This document shows, in pieces, positions 54,608 to 64,000 of a DNA stretch of 64,000 nt. The stretch lies in the NCBI GenBank assembly GCA_020241125.1, contig GCA_020241125.1_4708.1. One strand, written 5' to 3'. Within the stretch, counting starts at the first letter, position 1, and every line of letters starts with the position of its first letter. The DNA is from a phage. The notes beneath the pieces were generated by a model. It saw nothing but the letters and a program-made list of their open reading frames with translations, was not told the origin of the DNA and made no database searches. The position numbers and the translations under genes were made by a program.

Positions 54608-56254
54608 TTAGGCTCCACGAGGTCCCGTTAAGTTGCGTAATAGGAACGCAACCGTATCGTAACCAATATCGATGTTGAATTTATTTTTACCACTTACCCA
54701 GAAAGCTCGCTTCTTGTGCGAGTTGGTAATTTCGTCAATAGCTTCCATGGAATAAAGAACGTTAACCGAGACCGTATCACCATCAAAGTCCCCACCAAGT
54801 CCGGCGAGGTATGGCGCAGGGACAATAGTCGTTTCTACGAACGAAGCATTAGGTAACCAGTCGGGGTATTCCCATGCGATAAATCGTTCATCCGTTATTG
54901 GTTCCCAGTTACTATCCAGTTCGGTTTTCGGTTTTGCGGCGACGGTTGTACGTGCGTAACAGGTTAACGGGATAACGGATTGCATACCTGATACCGGATA
55001 ACGTGTTACCATCGCAGCCAGGTTATTCCAGTACTTATATCCGGCAATATAGATAAGCTCGGTGTAAGTAATGGGGTGAACATCCGCGCCAGGTTTATTC
55101 AACATCTCCGGGGGTAATTCACTCATGTCACGGAATAACCGAAACGAATCGTTGTTCACATAGACGAGGCAAAGATATCGTCCATTGACCATGATAGGCT
55201 CGTTACGCACGCCAGGATCGCTTAAGGTGTTCAGTAAACGTTCTATTCCGTCCCATGTTGTAAAGTCATCGATGGTGTCTGGATCAAGCGTGACGCGCTC
55301 ACGTTCCATCGTTTCGGTATCAATAAGTTCAACTTCTGTAACATCACGGACAAATATTTCCTGCAAAATACCTGTACGTAACGCATGTTGCGTTACTGGG
55401 AGAGCGGCTTTACTCATCTGGTATAACCCTAACTGAACCGCGGTACAGGAAGGCTGGTTAGGCGACCCTAATACCTCCGTTGTGGGGTTAATTGCCGAAA
55501 TAACGTTACGGGTTGAGTTCCAAACGCGACGTGAACCAAACTTACCTTGGAAGATCCCTTTCTTACCCTGGAACATATCCAACAGTAAAGCGTAGATATC
55601 GTTGAATGTTCTCTGTAAGCTCCAGCGCTGGCCGTCGTAAACGGGATCGGAATAATCTTTTAATCCATCAGGGACGGTGTTAGAAATTGCAAGGAAACGA
55701 CGATACAACTCCGTGATTTCTTGCTCGCTTTCATACCCACCTTCTTTTACTTCTATTTCACGTAAGCCTGCAGGCAATACCAGTAAGTGACGGGTCATCG
55801 CTTTGAACATGTTCTCTTCGACAACTTTAATTCGTAGCTCTCGTTGAGCTGAACCCGTTGAAACGAACTTGATATCCGCGACGTGTTGTGCAAAGAACCC
55901 GTATCCTGTTTGTCCTGTTAATGCATCAGACGCAACGAAGTCGCGTTGTTCGGGATCCCACCGAGCGTACGCCTTCCCCGACATGATATCGCCATAGAGG
56001 TGTTTTAATCGAATGAGACGGTCGTAAATGACAGGATGCAGGATTTCAACCTTGCATTCAATCACCGCAAATCGACGGTCTCGATCTTCACTACCCGCAC
56101 TACCAAAGATGGTGTAAGAATAGAAACCATCATCGTGGAAATTACCGGTGCTTGGGTCACGAATGCTCATGCTCGTGATCTTGGGGAGAAAACGTAACTG
56201 CTGTTTATCGAGGTGTAAAATACTAATATTAAACGGCTCTCTGACTTTAGCCAT
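54608..56254 (-). CDS. virion-type RNA polymerase beta-prime-like subunit, N-terminal fragment
   Basis: Track ORF 54608-56296; likely start at Met 15 with AAGAGGAG. Motifs LLVLPAGLREI (VLPPDLRP), ITELYRRF (DLNDLYRR), GGDFDGDTVSVNVLYSMEA (NADFDGDQMAVH). Confidence 0.7.
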   Translation of the reverse strand: MAKVREPFNISILHLDKQQLRFLPKITSMSIRDPSTGNFHDDGFYSYTIFGSAGSEDRDRRFAVIECKVEILHPVIYDRLIRLKHLYGDIMSGKAYARWDPEQRDFVASDALTGQTGYGFFAQHVADIKFVSTGSAQRELRIKVVEENMFKAMTRHLLVLPAGLREIEVKEGGYESEQEITELYRRFLAISNTVPDGLKDYSDPVYDGQRWSLQRTFNDIYALLLDMFQGKKGIFQGKFGSRRVWNSTRNVISAINPTTEVLGSPNQPSCTAVQLGLYQMSKAALPVTQHALRTGILQEIFVRDVTEVELIDTETMERERVTLDPDTIDDFTTWDGIERLLNTLSDPGVRNEPIMVNGRYLCLVYVNNDSFRLFRDMSELPPEMLNKPGADVHPITYTELIYIAGYKYWNNLAAMVTRYPVSGMQSVIPLTCYARTTVAAKPKTELDSNWEPITDERFIAWEYPDWLPNASFVETTIVPAPYLAGLGGDFDGDTVSVNVLYSMEAIDEITNSHKKRAFWVSGKNKFNIDIGYDTVAFLLRNLTGPRGA

Positions 56255-56499
56255 GGAGACACTCCTCTTTACCACCACCGGCTGCGGCGGTATCATCTGA
56301 ACACACGAGAGACGTAATGGGTGATGGCGTCACCCATCGCTTCCTTGCTTGAGGCGAGGAAGTTATTAGGTTACGTACCTGCCTGATTTTATCAGGTGGG
56401 CGATGTGTGAAGTTACGCTTCAACATTATCAATGCCGAAGGTAAACTTCGTGCATCACGTTCCAACGTAACATGGGAACGTATCGAACTGGAGGTATAC

Positions 56500-59400
56500 A
56501 TGGTAGATAAAACCCGTGTTGAGGGTGATGATAATTGGGACAACTGGGATGAAGACTTCTCCCTGGATCTCGATTTTAACGAACCCAAAGACGATCGTAA
56601 ACCGATAACACGCTTTGCGATAGGAGCGGTTAAAGGTGCTGCTGAGGATCTTACTTCCTACGAAAGAATGAAGGAGATCGCCAGAAACGCATTGCCTAAG
56701 GGCTACAGCGACGGTATGGATCTTATTGATTCCGCCGTCGGATCCACGAAGGAACTATACAATGAAGCCGTTCGTGACGTTCTTCCTAAGGTCCAAAGCT
56801 CAAAACGGTTAGCCGCACAACTGACCAAGAAATACCGTGCGAGCATGCCCGATTTCTCGAAGAAAATTCTTGAGCAATGGGAGCGAGAAGCCAAGGAAGA
56901 AGACGAACGTAAACAAGCTGAAGAAACCCTTCGTCAACGCATGGCGAGCGCGGGGGACGATGAGATCGCCCGCAAGGTTGCCGAGGCATTAGGCGAATCA
57001 GCAAACCAAAGCGCGGATCAGTTCGCTGAACAGCAAGCGAAAGAGAGTATCCGTGACGATATCGCTGACAAACGGTACGCTGTAACCAACAAACAAATGA
57101 GCGCGATGCAAGAAGGCGTCGCCAAGATGGTTGGTTTCAACAACGAATTCGCTGCACGCTACATGCGTAAAAGCCTGGAACTGAAATATCGTTCCTTAGC
57201 GATTCAACGTGCAAGTTTTGATCAGCATAAAAAGTTAGCCGAAGTCTATATCGGTTTATTACAAAACATCCAGAAGAATACGGCTTTACCTGATGCGGCT
57301 AAAGCAAAAATGTCGGAAGAATTCCGCCGTAGCGCGTACCAACGTTTCTTTGGTAATGCGTTAGATGCGATGAGTTCTTTCGAGAACCGTTTCTTTGCCG
57401 ATGTTAAGAAGAACCTTGCCACCAACGCATTAGGCGCTTTAAAAGGTGTCGTGTCCGGCGCAAACGATGCGTTATACGGTTTAAACGAAGCGCGTGACTC
57501 GATGTCCATGATGGACGGGATGGGGTCAGAAGGCGATATTAAGGAAATGCAAGGAAAGATGTTGGGTCAGTTCATTGGCTCAACTGTCGCGCCGTGGATG
57601 GCTAATAAAGGCAGGATGGCGTTACGCGATTTAGCAAAACGTCACCCCAATGCTAAATTCGCTAGCGCGTTAAAAGCCGTGGATCAAGGTGGTGAGGCTG
57701 CCGCTTACACGACGCGTAATCTCGGTAAACTGCTCCAGGAAGATATTCGTAAAAACGAATTCAATCTTAGCGATCCGTTTTACAAGCAATTGTTACGCGG
57801 TGCAGGGCGTTGGGCGTTCAACATGGACAGCGGACGTAACTTCCGCGTGATGAACGACACCGCTGAAACACTGGCGGAGCAAACATCTTTCGACGGTTTA
57901 ACTTACCGCAGTATCAATGAAGTTATTCCTGGTTTTCTTGCACGCATTCTGAAAAGCAGTGAAGGTATCCGCACCGGAAACAGCGATCCTGACTACGAGG
58001 TCTATGACGGCATCAGCGGACAATTCGTGTCTCAGCGCACGCGTGAACAAAGCGTCAATGACACGCTGTTTAACAAACGTACATTTGGTTATTACGCCAG
58101 CCGTTTCAACGAGGTTATCTCGGTCATCGATCCCGATAAGCAATTATCGGAAAAAGCCAGAAAGGCGCTGGCCAAGCAGTTGGCGCGAGATAGCGACGCG
58201 AACATCGCATTCGACCCGGCTCGTTTTACGGATGAAAGCAACTTCGATCGTAGTATTGACCGCGACGCTATTAAGGAACTTTCCACGTACTTTCGTGACC
58301 GTTACGGTATTCGTGATGATGTCAACGATAAGGGCGAACGTCATCAGGTCATTGGAAACCGCGGGCAATATTACACGGAACGTAACCGAGCCGATCTTCG
58401 TTACGGTCATCTGAAATCTTTACAACCGGATATCCAGCGTAACCTTAACCTGCTGAAACGTACTGGTGACGTCCAATATCTGGAACGGATTGGGATTGTA
58501 ACGAGAAATAGCGACGGAAGCTACTCGGTTAATCACGATCGGTATTTCTCTGAAATCGATCAATACATCGACCGACCGGAGTACGCTGACCGCGGCGATG
58601 TCAATACGCGATTAACCGCTCAGGAAACAAGAGCGCTGGCGCTGGGTTATCGTGACGCAAAACCATCAGCTGGTGACGTCCAAAATGTCGGCCTGCCGAA
58701 CATCGGTCGTAAGGCTGCTGGAACAGTAACCGTTGATGAAAACATCGGCTACGATAAATGGTGGAACGACACAGGTGTTATCACCACATCGCTTGAAGAA
58801 CAGAATCGAGCGTGGCAAGAGCTTTATCTCGAGGCGTTGTCCGAAGCATCCGAACAACGTGTTGAAATGCTTGCGCTGCTGAAAGCCATTTCTGAGAAAG
58901 ACTGGTCTAATAACGTTTCGCTGGATGGTGAAGATGTACCTGAAGGTACAGCACCCATTTCATTTATCGATCGTGCCAAACAAAAACTCGGCGGACGCAA
59001 CCTGTTTAAAGGCGGCCGCAATCTCCTCTGGAAAGGAATTAAAAATACCGCACGTTTAGGTGTTAAAGGCGCACGCTGGGGTGCAGAACGCACGTTGGGT
59101 AGTTTGGTAAATTCTGGCCGACGCATTATCAATTTCAACCGCTTCGTGTTCGGCGCATTATCCAAGGTTGATCAGGTTCCGTTTGACATTTACGTTAAAG
59201 GGGAATCCCAACCACGCATACTGGCTGCCAAACTTCGTCAGGGGTTATACTTCGACGAAGCGACAGGAAAAGCCGTAAAACGGATGAAGGATATCAAAGG
59301 CCCACTCGTTGATGCGGATGGAAACATCGTAATCAGCAACGAGGATATCGAGAAAGGGTTGGTCACTCGCGCTGGTCGTGCCTTTGAGAATTCAGGACTT

Positions 59401-62400
59401 AAAGCATGGGCACGTGAAGGTCTTAATGGAATAACGACGGCATTAAGTCTCCCACGGATGTTAAAACGCGGTGCGGTTGAGATCTACAAACAGCTTGACA
59501 AAACACCCGACGTTTACGTCAAGGGAGAATCAACGCCTCGTCTGTTGTCCATGGTGTTAGCAGCGGGTGGGTATTTCCGTCGCTCGGATGGACAAGTCAT
59601 CAAAAATCTTGAAGACATCGATGGTGATGTTGTTGATGCACAAGGTAACGTCGTACTTACGCTTGCCGACATGCAGAAAGGACTTGTCGATAAATACGGT
59701 AAAGCGATTCGTCGTTTAAAAGAAAAGCTCATCAACTTCGGTGTAAAAGCTTTTACGTTACCGTTAACGTTGCTACGTAAGACAAAGGACATCCTTAAAG
59801 CCCTTCCAGGTAAAACCGTTAACGGTCTACGGCGGATGGGATTAAATTTCCAATCACCCGACGCATTACTGGTGGGAACAACGTCGAGCATGGTAGATCG
59901 CCTCGATGCTATTTACCAGCTTCTTGACCAGCGTATGCCGGGAGGTGATAAGGATTACCGCGATTGGAATGGCGATGGTGTTCGAGAAGGATCGTTGGAA
60001 GACCTGAAACGTAAGCGTGAAGCCAAGGAAAACGGTAAGGATGACATCGGCAAAGATTCCAATAAAGGAGAAGAAAAGGAGAAGAAACGAGGGTTACTCG
60101 GAAGCCTTTTCGATATGCTCGGTGATACCGCAATAGGTAAACGTCTCATGGCGAGTCCGCTTGGAAAAATTCTGGGTGGTCTTGGGGCGGTGTTAAGCGG
60201 CGGTGCGTCGTTAACTGGGTTGTTGGGCAAAGGTCTCATTAGAGGAACCGGCGCGCTGGTCAAGGGAGGACTAAGTGCGGCAGGATGGTTAGGACGTGGT
60301 GCGTTAATGGCGGGTGGGGCCGCGTTGAACGCCGTTGGTGGGTTATCGGGATTAGGTGCATTCCTCATCTCACCTGTTGGGCTTGCTATCGCTGGCGGTG
60401 CGTTGGCTGCTTATGCTGGATGGAAGATCTATCAGCATTTCGCCGAGAAGCCTGACCCGATGCAGAAGCTCCGTCTTATTGCATACGGTGCAAAAGGGGA
60501 TGATAAAGACTTCAATAAGAAGCTGCTTGCGACAGAAACATACCTCACCGACCATGTGGTCATGACCGGGGATACCATCGGATTCGATCCGAAAGCCGAT
60601 TCTGAAAAGATTCTCGAAATCTGGGAATTGTCTCTGGAAGATTCCGACCGAATGAACGAATGGAAACGCTGGTATCTGCATCGTTTTATTCCTGTTTTCG
60701 CTCGTGCGTACAAACTCTGGAAAGAGCATATGCCGGACGAGAAGAAATACATGGAAATGGATAAATATCCGAACGGTGAGAACAAAGTGAAATGGTCGGA
60801 AGCGTTTATCTGGCCTTCCGATAGTCCTGATGGTCCGTATTACGTCGAAGCTAACCCGTTGGGTTCTTCTGGTGCGACGCGTTATATTGCTGGTCAAGAC
60901 GTCAAAACCTTGATGCTGAAACAGCTCGAAGCCATCAAGAAAGAGTACCAGAATCAGATTAAGCAATACACTCATGATGAGGCTATTGCTGATTGGTCAC
61001 GGATGTCTGACACACAACGTAAATCCGTTGCGCCTAACGCATTACGTGGTCAGAAAGCGTCATTACGTTTTAACGATAAACGTTACAACAGCGCTGGTGC
61101 TAAAGGACGACAGAAACTGGATGCAACCGCGGTTATTGAAAGCGTAGACCGTCGTGGTAGAAAATGGGTTGCCGGTGGATACATCGATGAACTCACCAGT
61201 CTCCGTGTTCGTGCGTACGGTATTAAGGTTCCGTTGTTAAGTCAGATAAAAGTGCTGATGGAACTCGAAGACGCTGTAGAACCTGGCGTTGTCGCTGAAG
61301 GTAAAGGTGTTAAATACGGTGGCGATCTTGTCGCGCTCTACAAGAAATTCGCGACGAAGTTCGGAAGAGACGTTAACAGCAAGCATGATCAGGATATCTG
61401 GTTTGCTTGGATGAACAACCGTTTCCTGCCCGTCTTTTTAACCTATTACCAACAAGTTAGCGACATGGGCGGTCAAGGACTTCTGTCCGACGTGGTACAG
61501 AACCTGAAAGACAGCCAACGTTGGGAAATCGGTGAAGAACTTGTCGCAGCGCAATACCGTGATGAGAAAGGTACACTGCAGCCCGTATGGTCGTGGAACA
61601 GTTGTGGTTTCTCCGGTACTGAAGCTAACACCACCAGCAGTTCAACAAAGAGTCAGCTCGATCTGTTAAAAGAATATGCGGATAAAGAGAAGGTTCGTGA
61701 GAAGAACGCGGAAGCATCGCAAGAGGATACCGATAAATTATCGAAGATCCAAGAGCTGATGATGAAGCAGGCTGGGTACGAGAAGAAAGACGGTGTCTGG
61801 CAGAAGAAATCTCGCATTACCGGCGGGATGAGTAACTCCGAAGCGAATTACAACCCCAATGGGAATAAGGTCGGTGCAAGCAGCTTTACTGCTTCAGCTA
61901 CTTCCAGTGCGGGATTGGGGTCAACCGGCGATCTTACCGGATTGCCTAACATGGGCTTACAGAAACCTGCAACGGGGCCAGGTCCCGAAGCTGGACGTCG
62001 TGCGCTTGTTAAATCCGCTGTGAAACGCGGTATTACCGATCCAATGGAAATGGCGATGTTCCTTGCAAACATCGAACATGAATCGGGGAACTACACTCAC
62101 GTACGTGAGGGGAACTATAAGACACCAGAGCGTCTTAAACAGGTCTTCCCTTACAAATTCCGTGACGTGCAGGATGCAGCGCAGACGATTAGCATGGGGC
62201 CGGAAGCGGTGTTCGAACGCGTGTACGGTAATCGTAAAGACTTAGGGAACACGCAGAAAGGAGACGGGGCGAAGTATTTAGGACGTGGCTTCATTCAGGT
62301 TACCGGTAAAGCTAACTACGCTCGTCTGTCCAAGACCTTGAATAAAGATCTTGTCAGCGATCCATCATACCTGGAAACGCCGGAAGGTGCGGCGGAAGGT

Positions 62401-63165
62401 AGTGTCGCGTGGTGGCTCAACCGAGGCAATGTGTTACGCGATCCTGCGAAACGGGGTGATGTGCGCCAAGTTCGTTATCTGGTTAACGGTGGCTATAATG
62501 GATTACGTGACGTTGAACAGCGCTCTGCTTATTGGATTCAGGCGGCTAAGAATGGCACCCTGAAGAAAATGATGGATGAGTTATCGGGATCAACATCAGG
62601 CGATCAAGCTGAAGGACCGACTACCGCCGAGCAGGTGAAGAATGAAGCAGCCCAAGAGGCAAACGGAACGCCAACTGTAAGCAACGATCCGCAAGCCCCA
62701 GCACCTTCAACCACCCCTGAAGCTAAACCGTCTGCGGCTGCCGGTACGGCTCCAGCACCCGGAGAAGCATCACCAGCGCCTGGAAGTTTCGAAACAGCGA
62801 AAGCTGCGGCAGGACAACCGACATCAACGCCAGCACTTAGCGATTTGCCGTCAAACCCTGGCGCAAATCGAGGGATATCGGTTCCGAATACGCCTGCACA
62901 GGTCGCGCAGTCTGCGACACAAACATCGGCCGCGAGTGAGAACTTCTACGGTAGCGCAGGTGAAATTCTCCGACAGCAGCTGACCACGCAGCAGAACATC
63001 GAGAAGAACACCGGTAGAACGAATGAACTTATTTCGGAATTAATCCAAGCCGTTAAGGGTTCTTCTATCGGTAAGGGTTCTGCAAGTCCTTCTCAACAAC
63101 AGGCGATGTCGCTACCTAATCGTCCGCAAGGAATCTCTCCAACACGGACAAGGTACGCGCAGTAG
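56500..63165 (+). CDS. giant virion protein with GH19 lysozyme-like domain
   Basis: Track ORF from 56407; likely ATG at 56500 after GGAGG. About 2220 aa: coiled-coil-like N-terminus, 108-codon tandem duplication, Gly-zipper hydrophobic segment, GH19-like block (NIEHESGN ... YLGRGFIQVTGKANY), P/A/T-rich C-terminus. Confidence 0.7.
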   Translation: MVDKTRVEGDDNWDNWDEDFSLDLDFNEPKDDRKPITRFAIGAVKGAAEDLTSYERMKEIARNALPKGYSDGMDLIDSAVGSTKELYNEAVRDVLPKVQSSKRLAAQLTKKYRASMPDFSKKILEQWEREAKEEDERKQAEETLRQRMASAGDDEIARKVAEALGESANQSADQFAEQQAKESIRDDIADKRYAVTNKQMSAMQEGVAKMVGFNNEFAARYMRKSLELKYRSLAIQRASFDQHKKLAEVYIGLLQNIQKNTALPDAAKAKMSEEFRRSAYQRFFGNALDAMSSFENRFFADVKKNLATNALGALKGVVSGANDALYGLNEARDSMSMMDGMGSEGDIKEMQGKMLGQFIGSTVAPWMANKGRMALRDLAKRHPNAKFASALKAVDQGGEAAAYTTRNLGKLLQEDIRKNEFNLSDPFYKQLLRGAGRWAFNMDSGRNFRVMNDTAETLAEQTSFDGLTYRSINEVIPGFLARILKSSEGIRTGNSDPDYEVYDGISGQFVSQRTREQSVNDTLFNKRTFGYYASRFNEVISVIDPDKQLSEKARKALAKQLARDSDANIAFDPARFTDESNFDRSIDRDAIKELSTYFRDRYGIRDDVNDKGERHQVIGNRGQYYTERNRADLRYGHLKSLQPDIQRNLNLLKRTGDVQYLERIGIVTRNSDGSYSVNHDRYFSEIDQYIDRPEYADRGDVNTRLTAQETRALALGYRDAKPSAGDVQNVGLPNIGRKAAGTVTVDENIGYDKWWNDTGVITTSLEEQNRAWQELYLEALSEASEQRVEMLALLKAISEKDWSNNVSLDGEDVPEGTAPISFIDRAKQKLGGRNLFKGGRNLLWKGIKNTARLGVKGARWGAERTLGSLVNSGRRIINFNRFVFGALSKVDQVPFDIYVKGESQPRILAAKLRQGLYFDEATGKAVKRMKDIKGPLVDADGNIVISNEDIEKGLVTRAGRAFENSGLKAWAREGLNGITTALSLPRMLKRGAVEIYKQLDKTPDVYVKGESTPRLLSMVLAAGGYFRRSDGQVIKNLEDIDGDVVDAQGNVVLTLADMQKGLVDKYGKAIRRLKEKLINFGVKAFTLPLTLLRKTKDILKALPGKTVNGLRRMGLNFQSPDALLVGTTSSMVDRLDAIYQLLDQRMPGGDKDYRDWNGDGVREGSLEDLKRKREAKENGKDDIGKDSNKGEEKEKKRGLLGSLFDMLGDTAIGKRLMASPLGKILGGLGAVLSGGASLTGLLGKGLIRGTGALVKGGLSAAGWLGRGALMAGGAALNAVGGLSGLGAFLISPVGLAIAGGALAAYAGWKIYQHFAEKPDPMQKLRLIAYGAKGDDKDFNKKLLATETYLTDHVVMTGDTIGFDPKADSEKILEIWELSLEDSDRMNEWKRWYLHRFIPVFARAYKLWKEHMPDEKKYMEMDKYPNGENKVKWSEAFIWPSDSPDGPYYVEANPLGSSGATRYIAGQDVKTLMLKQLEAIKKEYQNQIKQYTHDEAIADWSRMSDTQRKSVAPNALRGQKASLRFNDKRYNSAGAKGRQKLDATAVIESVDRRGRKWVAGGYIDELTSLRVRAYGIKVPLLSQIKVLMELEDAVEPGVVAEGKGVKYGGDLVALYKKFATKFGRDVNSKHDQDIWFAWMNNRFLPVFLTYYQQVSDMGGQGLLSDVVQNLKDSQRWEIGEELVAAQYRDEKGTLQPVWSWNSCGFSGTEANTTSSSTKSQLDLLKEYADKEKVREKNAEASQEDTDKLSKIQELMMKQAGYEKKDGVWQKKSRITGGMSNSEANYNPNGNKVGASSFTASATSSAGLGSTGDLTGLPNMGLQKPATGPGPEAGRRALVKSAVKRGITDPMEMAMFLANIEHESGNYTHVREGNYKTPERLKQVFPYKFRDVQDAAQTISMGPEAVFERVYGNRKDLGNTQKGDGAKYLGRGFIQVTGKANYARLSKTLNKDLVSDPSYLETPEGAAEGSVAWWLNRGNVLRDPAKRGDVRQVRYLVNGGYNGLRDVEQRSAYWIQAAKNGTLKKMMDELSGSTSGDQAEGPTTAEQVKNEAAQEANGTPTVSNDPQAPAPSTTPEAKPSAAAGTAPAPGEASPAPGSFETAKAAAGQPTSTPALSDLPSNPGANRGISVPNTPAQVAQSATQTSAASENFYGSAGEILRQQLTTQQNIEKNTGRTNELISELIQAVKGSSIGKGSASPSQQQAMSLPNRPQGISPTRTRYAQ
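59185..59832 (+). repeat. in-frame tandem duplication of a 108-codon module inside the giant protein gene
   Basis: DIYVKGESQPRILAAKLRQGLYFDEATGKAV...DADGNIVISNEDIEKGLV (from 59185) against DVYVKGESTPRLLSMVLAAGGYFRRSDGQVI...DAQGNVVLTLADMQKGLV (from 59509). Confidence 0.6.
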
Positions 63166-63214: not shown

Positions 63215-64000
63215 ATGGGTATTCTTGTTCAAAACGCCCTAATCACCAAACAGGCGTTTTTATTACCGGGCGATAGCAGCACGCTTAGTGCTGACATGAT
63301 TAAAGCGAGACATACACCGTATTCCTACGATAACGTCGATGATACCACCTTAGGCGGGAACTGGGTGCTTAACCCACCACCGCAATATACCAAATTTGCC
63401 GACATCAAGGAACGCCGACGTGCGGTTATGCCTGGATCAACGGGCATGGGCCGAGGCTATAGTGAAAGCATTAACAGCTTTAAAGAGGTCGTTACGTTAC
63501 GATTCGGTAAACCTCGCTTTACAGGCGCAAGTATCTTCTTTACTGATTTCTACGATGCCGATGTTGCCGTAACGGTTAAAACCGGTCGCGATCCCGGTAT
63601 TCTTTATTACGCAGCCAAAGCGTATACCACCGTTCTTTCTTACCTCACACCTCTACCCTACTTGTATATGGTTGGACGTATCGGTCGATATTTCCTGGGT
63701 AAGCCTACCAGTCAATATTACTATCAAGTACCAACCATGCACGTGTATTGGGCGTCTTTCCAAACGCTGGTAAACCAAACAGCGATAAACATGGGTCTTA
63801 TCGCCGGTGCCGGTAAAGATAAAGGCTATGTGGAAGAAGGGGGTACCGTACTCCACCAATATTCAATCGGTGGTCAGAACGTTGAAGAATTCATCAACTA
63901 CGCCTCTAAGACGCTACCGGGGATTTATAAGAAAGGTGGTGGGATCGATATCTACCAGATCGCAACACGACGTCAGCGCATACAGAACGCATGGGTACGT
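63215..64000 (+). CDS. hypothetical protein, 3' end beyond window edge
   Basis: ATG at 63215 with GAGGA 6 nt upstream; frame open for 262 codons to window end (MGILVQNALITKQAFLLPGD...); not in track because no stop in window. Confidence 0.5.
   Translation, partial: MGILVQNALITKQAFLLPGDSSTLSADMIKARHTPYSYDNVDDTTLGGNWVLNPPPQYTKFADIKERRRAVMPGSTGMGRGYSESINSFKEVVTLRFGKPRFTGASIFFTDFYDADVAVTVKTGRDPGILYYAAKAYTTVLSYLTPLPYLYMVGRIGRYFLGKPTSQYYYQVPTMHVYWASFQTLVNQTAINMGLIAGAGKDKGYVEEGGTVLHQYSIGGQNVEEFINYASKTLPGIYKKGGGIDIYQIATRRQRIQNAWVR

Follow-up and report, generated by a model that had tools for sequence, protein, structure and literature searches.

A GH19 wall-hydrolase domain in the giant gp181-family tail protein of a Goslar-like jumbo phage

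We analysed a stretch of 64,000 nucleotides of phage DNA (GenBank assembly GCA_020241125.1, contig GCA_020241125.1_4708.1), hereafter the window, and focused on the giant gene encoded near its 3' end. Its product, of 2221 residues and 246 kDa, is very probably a tail protein of the gp181 family with an active-looking GH19 cassette. This family comprises the giant tail proteins of chimalliviruses, i.e., phiKZ gp181, SPN3US gp239 and Goslar gp204, and is an essential, low-copy component of the virion. We consider it likely that the protein as a whole serves in the tail at low copy number, probably as the tape measure, and combines an exchangeable wall-lysing cassette with a membrane-active segment. 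The original prediction, made from the sequence without database searches, had delimited the same open reading frame and given it about 2220 residues; both hold when translation starts at the ATG at position 56500. The gene and its catalytic domain are as follows.

56500 to 63165, + strand: coding sequence of the giant tail protein, 2221 codons plus stop; orthologue of Goslar_00232 / HOV27_gp204 and of phiKZ gp181
62005 to 62541, + strand: GH19 catalytic domain (residues 1836-2014), with predicted catalytic residues Glu1861, Glu1870 and Thr1935

Searched as a single sequence, the catalytic domain matched the Pfam profile PF00182 with 18.5 bits, under the cut-off of 25.5, a threshold that many close small relatives pass. 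A phmmer search against the PDB sequences retrieved GH19-type phage endolysins with E-values from 1.6e-22 (9eoi) to 2.6e-16. A profile built from 54 sequences matched GH19 endolysins in the PDB at 3e-73 and, at 1e-17 to 1e-10, classical GH19 chitinases such as those of barley and jack bean and ChiC of Streptomyces, and this search gave no match to GH23 or other lytic transglycosylases. Three columns of the 54-sequence alignment are invariant: E1861 (in HES, codon 62080-62082), E1870 (in VRE, codon 62107-62109) and T1935 (in IQVTG, codon 62302-62304). The first is part of the motif EHESGN (residues 1859-1864, positions 62074-62091) and the last of YLGRGFIQVTGKANY (residues 1926-1940, positions 62275-62319). 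We take these residues to be the equivalents of Glu67, Glu89 and Ser120 of the barley enzyme, i.e., the general acid, the general base and the water-positioning residue. The AlphaFold model of the domain is all-helical, with a predicted local distance difference test score (pLDDT) of 92.1. The top 49 Foldseek matches of this model in the PDB are all GH19 enzymes, and the first lytic transglycosylase, MltE, appears at rank 50 (E 0.42, template-modelling (TM) score 0.23). Since the profile matches, the invariant Glu/Glu/Thr residues, the model and the Foldseek ranking agree, we assign the domain to GH19 and not to GH23. It would be expected to have muralytic activity on peptidoglycan. The GH19-type block of the original prediction was thus recovered at residues 1836-2014, and the searches returned neither a GH23/SLT domain nor a non-catalytic fold.

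The domain shares its fold and a Glu-Glu-Thr/Ser triad with the GH19 endolysins of Salmonella SPN1S (4ok7), P. aeruginosa (9eoi) and KTN6 (gp46, 8p8e), and with TseP (8xcl), an effector of the type VI secretion system (T6SS). Identity to these proteins is 28-32% and the TM score is about 0.7. The endolysins and TseP are free-standing proteins of about 200 residues, often with a peptidoglycan-binding domain, which attack the wall from inside the cell at lysis, or else are secreted, whereas the GH19 domain of the window is embedded in a virion protein and would act from the outside at entry.

Outside the catalytic region the protein is homologous to phiKZ gp181, a structural peptidoglycan hydrolase of 2237 residues. 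BLASTP aligned the two over residues 35-683 (24% identity, E 5e-45) and 887-1730 (E 7e-37), two stretches that together include both internal duplications and the Gly-rich region described below. The two proteins have similar sizes, the same duplications of modules A and B, and a lytic domain at the same relative position; the window protein also matches phrog_3201 (E 3.4e-295). Similarity to gp181 stops at around residue 1730 and is not detectable across the catalytic region. The last 70 residues or so are related again, as shown by the alignment of the tails of the GH19 and SLT clades (hhalign 94.5%, E 7.9e-8). The cassette of gp181 is an SLT/GH23 domain (Pfam PF01464, residues 1885-1978, 28.4 bits for a cut-off of 21.3), whereas the window protein lacks this domain of the founding member and has GH19 instead. 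Because the similarity vanishes over the catalytic region and resumes in the last 70 residues, these alignments indicate that the catalytic domain is a cassette placed between disordered linkers and conserved flanks, in which GH19 replaces SLT at the same place.

The gene order tells the same story. The gene is divergent from the virion RNA polymerase (vRNAP) genes and lies directly upstream of a gp182-type gene, which is the locus expected of the gp181 family. The order shared with phiKZ includes the head protease, a head protein, the large vRNAP subunit, the second vRNAP subunit, the divergent giant gene and the gp182-type gene, and the locus is also syntenic with those of RAY, RSL2, an Elvirus and SPN3US. 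BLASTP, the C-terminal tail and the gene order therefore all confirm the resemblance to gp181 that had been noticed from size and position. The lytic transglycosylase domain that the original prediction had ascribed to gp181 is above the Pfam cut-off, and GH19 is indeed a different lytic family at the gp181 position.

The DNA of the gene is 96.1% identical to that of Escherichia phage vB_EcoM_Goslar, with 96.7% identity over the 20 kb around it. Judged by these values, the window phage is a close relative of Goslar, a nucleus-forming jumbo phage of E. coli (Chimalliviridae). The Goslar orthologue (YP_009820915.1) has 98.3% amino-acid identity (38 substitutions) and equal length when counted from the ATG, and the GH19 domains differ by a single substitution (T1956S). 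Only 38 of the 255 codons that differ from Goslar alter the amino acid, and the frame is therefore coding and under purifying selection.

This orthologue is present in virions. Label-free quantification mass spectrometry on purified virions of Goslar recovered it with 34 peptides and estimates of 3.4, 5.1 and 8.0 copies, and it was noted as 'Tail protein' (Goslar preprint). The copy number resembles that of hub proteins known to be present at 3 and 6 copies. In the part of the peptide table that we searched (Table S4), the virion peptides map to residues 393-771 and to residues 2102-2124, beyond the catalytic domain; among them, AAAGQPTSTPAPSDLPSNPGANR maps to the P/A/T/S/Q-rich linker after the cassette. 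The prediction of a virion protein is thus borne out through a 98.3%-identical orthologue. In SPN3US, the syntenic homologue gp239 was called tape measure protein, a name given without a length test, and is absent from tailless particles. Work on phiKZ describes the gp181 family as the 'likely' tape measure, gp181 is cited as essential in this phage, and its isolated SLT domain is strongly muralytic (60,000 U/mg, as cited in PMC5380687). Hence, the published data on the orthologues of Goslar and SPN3US give the low copy number and the tail association expected of a tape measure.

To place the cassette in the family, we used the N-terminal 1200 residues as a query, which retrieved 1,645 clusters at 50% identity, and classed the 146 full-length proteins found among the best 150 of these clusters. 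SLT domains were found in 106 of the 146 proteins (73%), GH19 in 16 (11%), M23 in 10 (7%), a lambda-lysozyme-like domain in three (2%), and no recognisable lytic domain in 11 (7.5%). The lambda-lysozyme-like domain is a weak match to 1am7 (E 0.002). In this census the lytic domain was always 110-390 residues from the C-terminus, and there were never two in one protein. The metagenomic members (P0020, P0026, P0011, P0012, P0022, P0030 and P0031) have M23, lambda-lysozyme-like or no recognisable domains at the cassette position. Since 73% of the representatives, not all of them, carry SLT, this domain is the majority state and should not define the gp181 family.

GH19 occupies the cassette position in at least four phage genera. 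It is found in gp162 of Erwinia phage RAY (Agricanvirus; residues 1831-2014 of 2239, same locus), in ORF039 of Ralstonia phage RSL2 (Chiangmaivirus; residues 1679-1865 of 2039, same locus, named in UniProt as a GH19-domain protein), and in an Elvirus 'endolysin' (residues 2000-2189 of 2537, same locus). These GH19 domains are 34-44% identical to that of the window, for N-terminal parts that are about 24-27% identical. A neighbour-joining tree of the N-terminal region, built without bootstraps, showed the cassette types as clustered but patchy, and at least around 10 changes between GH19 and other types were needed, versus 16 with shuffled labels. An unbootstrapped neighbour-joining tree of the domains placed the GH19 cassettes of giant proteins in one group with respect to small endolysins. 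Rough as the two trees are, they suggest that cassettes were exchanged repeatedly among these phages and not captured once and recently. The grouping of the giant-protein cassettes also weakly disfavours the idea that the Goslar lineage recently captured GH19 from an endolysin. The GH19 variant is fairly common in the family and was already publicly annotated: GenBank lists the Goslar orthologue as 'putative chitinase, COG3179', and RefSeq (NC_048170) as 'tail fiber protein'. The novelty implied by the original prediction was accordingly overstated.

Around the GH19 domain we distinguished the following features.

56490 to 56494, + strand: Shine-Dalgarno sequence GGAGG, 5 nt upstream of the ATG at 56500
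56602 to 58548, + strand: conserved N-terminal region (residues 35-683), the best-conserved part of the family
59164 to 59496, + strand: module A, copy 1 (residues 889-999), with a beta-rich core at residues 892-964 or so; AlphaFold pLDDT about 88-91
59491 to 59805, + strand: module A, copy 2 (residues 998-1102), with a folded core at about residues 1001-1074
59950 to 60099, + strand: Lys/Glu-rich linker (residues 1151-1200); fraction of Lys and Glu 0.34, of Lys, Glu, Arg and Asp 0.58
60100 to 60429, + strand: Gly/Ala/Leu-rich hydrophobic segment (residues 1201-1310, approximately); fraction of Gly, Ala and Leu 0.56-0.70 per 50 residues
60454 to 60996, + strand: module B, copy 1 (residues 1319-1499), an alpha/beta globular domain; pLDDT 85-95
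61186 to 61806, + strand: module B, copy 2 (residues 1563-1769); pLDDT 81-98
61816 to 61989, + strand: low-complexity disordered linker (residues 1773-1830), pLDDT under 50; 5' boundary of the exchangeable region
62617 to 62949, + strand: P/A/T/S/Q-rich linker after the cassette (residues 2040-2150); fraction of these residues 0.64-0.72 over residues 2051-2150
62947 to 63162, + strand: conserved C-terminal tail (residues 2150-2221), with a short helix (…ILRQQLTTQQ…ELISELIQAV…) and then a basic Pro-rich end

The duplications were found by windowed self-searches; a self-BLAST of the whole protein gave the identity match alone. They pair residues 889-999 with 998-1102 (module A, 46% identity, E 6e-19) and residues 1319-1405 with 1563-1651 (module B, 28% identity, E 8e-4). 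We modelled residues 860-1830 with AlphaFold on a 37-sequence alignment of the family. All four module copies folded confidently as globular domains (pLDDT about 81-98), and the linkers were disordered. Foldseek comparisons of this model gave no match in the PDB (best E 0.7) and family members only in BFVD. Pfam searches with the whole protein and with its non-lytic parts returned only the sub-threshold GH19 match and noise (Talin_R4, DUF3659, HEAT), and the NCBIfam search of the protein returned no match. The C-terminal tail is common to the GH19, SLT and M23 members examined.

The Lys/Glu-rich linker starts with DWNGDGVREGS (residues 1155-1165, positions 59962-59994), which follows the pattern D-x-[DN]-G-D-G-x-R-x-G-S. 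The consensus GDxDGDGxRxGS is kept across very divergent homologues and resembles, in its residues, a calcium-binding loop of the DxDxDG type. In the Gly/Ala/Leu-rich segment that follows, the highest 19-residue Kyte-Doolittle (KD) window of the whole protein (1.91) is at the distal end, at residues 1285-1303 (positions 60352-60408). Most homologues have an equivalent hydrophobic helix that contains a proline (SxPVxLG), with KD values of 2.0-2.35. AlphaFold presents the segment mostly as low-confidence coil, with a helix at around residues 1292-1314. The segment had been called a glycine zipper. Composition-preserving shuffles of 120 residues led us to drop this label, because the motif counts are under expectation: GxxxG occurs three times versus 7.1 ± 2.0 expected, and glycine-zipper triplets, (G/A/S)xxxGxxx(G/A/S), four times versus 6.1 ± 2.3. 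We therefore describe the segment as Gly-rich and hydrophobic. The other compositional features of the original prediction, i.e., the Lys/Glu-rich linker, the Gly/Ala/Leu-rich hydrophobic segment and the P/A/T-rich stretch near the C-terminus, were recovered by composition and hydropathy, and the modules it saw as duplicated are the two significant duplications given above.

These elements can be ordered in a scheme of entry. The protein would be housed as tape measure in the unusually wide lumen of the tail tube, which in phiKZ is about 68 Å wide (PMC13250141) and could hold small folded domains. Its last 400 residues or so (disordered linker, GH19 cassette, second linker and C-terminal tail) would make up a delivery module, with the conserved tail docked at the baseplate hub. 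In other myophages the C-termini of tape measures plug the tip (PMC13338283). After contraction of the sheath and loss of the spike, the C-terminal end would exit the tube first and the GH19 domain, acting from the outside, would cut glycan strands locally. The Gly/Ala/Leu-rich segment (residues 1201-1310) would then engage the inner membrane and help to open or line the DNA conduit. T5 Pb2, lambda gpH and the tape measure of HK97 have been proposed to act on the membrane in a similar way (PMC5380687, PMC13338283). The tape-measure role is supported by the position of the gene, directly upstream of, and co-oriented with, the gene of the gp182-type protein, which is a tail-tube initiator or spacer ring of the baseplate hub (Goslar preprint; PMC13250141). 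Taken on their own, we regard the tape-measure and membrane steps as rather more credible than doubtful.

T5 Pb2 and the lytic-motif tape measure of mycobacteriophage TM4 follow the same logic, in which a single long tail protein unites a ruler with a segment that is hydrophobic or fusogenic and with a muralytic domain close to the distal end (PMC5380687, PMC13338283). We detected no sequence homology between them and the window protein, and the tape-measure role is shown for Pb2 and presumed for the window protein. Pb2 reportedly has about 1200 residues, is part of a non-contractile tail and bears a muralytic domain of the peptidase type (Boulanger and colleagues, 2008).

A bolder version of this scheme would make the C-terminal domain a true exchange cassette, swapped repeatedly by recombination in the linkers, and would also have the Gly-rich segment engage the inner membrane so as to seed the early-infection (EPI) vesicle. 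We think this combination improbable. Cryo-electron tomography revealed the phiKZ inner tube attached to the EPI vesicle, with no protein assigned to the step (2026 jumbo-phage review). If the combination were true, the hydrophobic segment would be the virion element that seeds the vesicle receiving the DNA injected by these phages. The giant protein goes unmentioned in an EPI-vesicle proteomics preprint, in the core-genome paper and in the 2026 jumbo-phage review.

Several observations weigh against the protein being a wall-lysing, membrane-active tape measure. Residues 860-1830 are predicted as beads on a string, with four globular modules and not a continuous helical rod, and 2221 residues far exceed the need of a tail of about 175-200 nm if fully helical. 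The protein is neither modelled nor mentioned in the main texts of the Goslar structure or the phiKZ atlas, and because neither structure models it, no density places it in the tube lumen. In the Gly-rich segment AlphaFold gives no confident transmembrane helices across most of the length, nor is there a GxxxG periodicity. In phiKZ gp181 the hydrophobic helix is weak and the most hydrophobic window lies elsewhere; the Gly-rich segment is more hydrophobic in the window protein (KD 1.91) than in gp181. Among the rows of Goslar Table S4 that were searched, which are part of the table and make this weak evidence, three tryptic peptides of the GH19 domain were absent. Finally, wall lysis may be dispensable, because about 7.5% of the members have no recognisable lytic domain.

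Some of these points would suit a wall lysin attached elsewhere in the tail, e.g., at the peripheral baseplate, with no role as ruler or membrane channel and a body that serves as scaffold or as host-surface-binding structure. A middle part made of globular modules is natural for such a protein, three to eight copies fit the six-fold symmetry of a baseplate equally well, and much of the peripheral baseplate is unmodelled in the Goslar structure. However, the conserved hydrophobic segment is hard to explain in an external baseplate protein, and the gene adjoins that of the tube initiator or spacer, in the same orientation. Neither of the two structural papers names another candidate for the tape measure, a role that the workers on SPN3US and phiKZ give to the gp181 family. 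We hold a baseplate lysin to be unlikely, although it deserves more weight than any of the other alternatives. The oldest of these is the original proposal for gp181, listed in the older literature as 'needle-like cell-puncturing device, putative trimer' (table in PMC5380687). A central spike of this kind would recall T4 gp5, with its lysozyme domain, and the low copy number fits as well. Yet, cryo-electron microscopy assigned the spike, tip and hub to gp164, gp163.1 and gp101 in phiKZ and to gp13 and gp48 in Goslar (PMC13250141, Goslar preprint). In these 2026 structures the initiator rings are also given to other proteins and the hub and inner-baseplate density is all accounted for. There is also no beta-helix or OB-fold in the AlphaFold model of residues 860-1830. 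We rejected the spike on the cryo-electron microscopy assignments, and give it very little credence.

The names found in the databases point to two further readings. A tail fibre or receptor-binding protein would agree with the RefSeq product name and with the annotation of phrog_3201 ('tail fiber protein'). Pfam and fold searches found no fibre-like repeats, beta-helix or carbohydrate-binding domain, the host-recognition filaments of Goslar have been assigned to DUF7941 proteins (Goslar preprint), and a fibre is not where a catalytic wall hydrolase with a hydrophobic segment belongs. The label seems to have arisen by annotation propagation, and we think a fibre as implausible as a spike. We observed that the name 'tail fiber protein' is spread over dozens of jumbo-phage records, with 'endolysin' or 'chitinase' in others, and found no evidence supporting any of these names as the function of the protein. 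The GenBank names 'putative chitinase' and 'endolysin', and the fact that GH19 was founded on chitinases, would suggest a genuine chitinase or an end-of-cycle endolysin. We see hardly any chance of this. Among solved structures, phage endolysins and a peptidoglycan effector of the T6SS are nearest, both by profile (E 3e-73 versus 1e-17 for chitinases) and by Foldseek (TM about 0.7 versus 0.45-0.5 for plant and bacterial chitinases). The Goslar orthologue shows that the protein is packaged in virions, the domain is interchangeable with the wall-degrading SLT and M23 domains, and a structural protein of 246 kDa is implausible as a soluble endolysin.

For the start of the gene, the frame open to 63165 offers two codons, GTG 56407 and ATG 56500. 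Homologues P0003-P0005 (47-87% identical) begin at the equivalent of ATG 56500. Given the GGAGG just upstream and the match to the N-termini of these more distant homologues, ATG 56500 is the better start, and the GTG start of Goslar in GenBank and RefSeq (equivalent to 56407) is probably 31 codons too long. Two observations concern the sampling of such phages. A 161-residue NCBI fragment (P0042), annotated as 'glycoside hydrolase family 19 protein, partial [Escherichia coli]' on a contig of 484 nt, is 99% identical to the GH19 domain and is probably Goslar-like phage DNA inside a bacterial assembly. The cluster P0001 (full-length, 98% identical) has 615 members in public read-set assemblies, and Goslar-like phages are therefore widely sampled.

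The genes on either side are the following.

54608 to 56296, - strand: virion RNA polymerase subunit gene, divergent from the giant gene, 562 codons, uninterrupted
63215 to 64000, + strand, cut by the end of the window: first part of the next gene, a homologue of Goslar gp203 / phiKZ gp182, identified by open frame and synteny

In the vRNAP subunit gene Goslar carries about 2,051 bp extra (211748-213798 of the Goslar record) at a point that corresponds to the junction around 54781-54789 of the window. This insert holds an annotated group I intron and an intron open reading frame of 490 codons similar to phiKZ ORF179, and the GenBank record of Goslar annotates merely the 502-residue product of the first exon. 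Compared in this way, the window phage has a natural intron-less allele of the gene. We found no tRNA gene in positions 1-64000 of the window, and no Rfam family at the gathering threshold, the latter being consistent with the missing intron.

These results call for a correction of the annotation. The product is a tail protein of the gp181 family that carries a GH19 wall hydrolase; the names 'tail fiber' and chitinase do not apply, and translation probably begins at ATG 56500. Modular virion-associated lysins and lysin-bearing tape measures are already well known to phage specialists. The family adds the case of one essential structural protein that, at a fixed position between conserved flanks, tolerates four or more wall-degrading domains which are unrelated or related only distantly, and also the lack of any such domain. 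Such tolerance would be useful for the engineering of virion-borne lysins. For the still unexplained step in which the tail tube of chimalliviruses first touches the inner membrane of their hosts, the protein is also a reasonable candidate.

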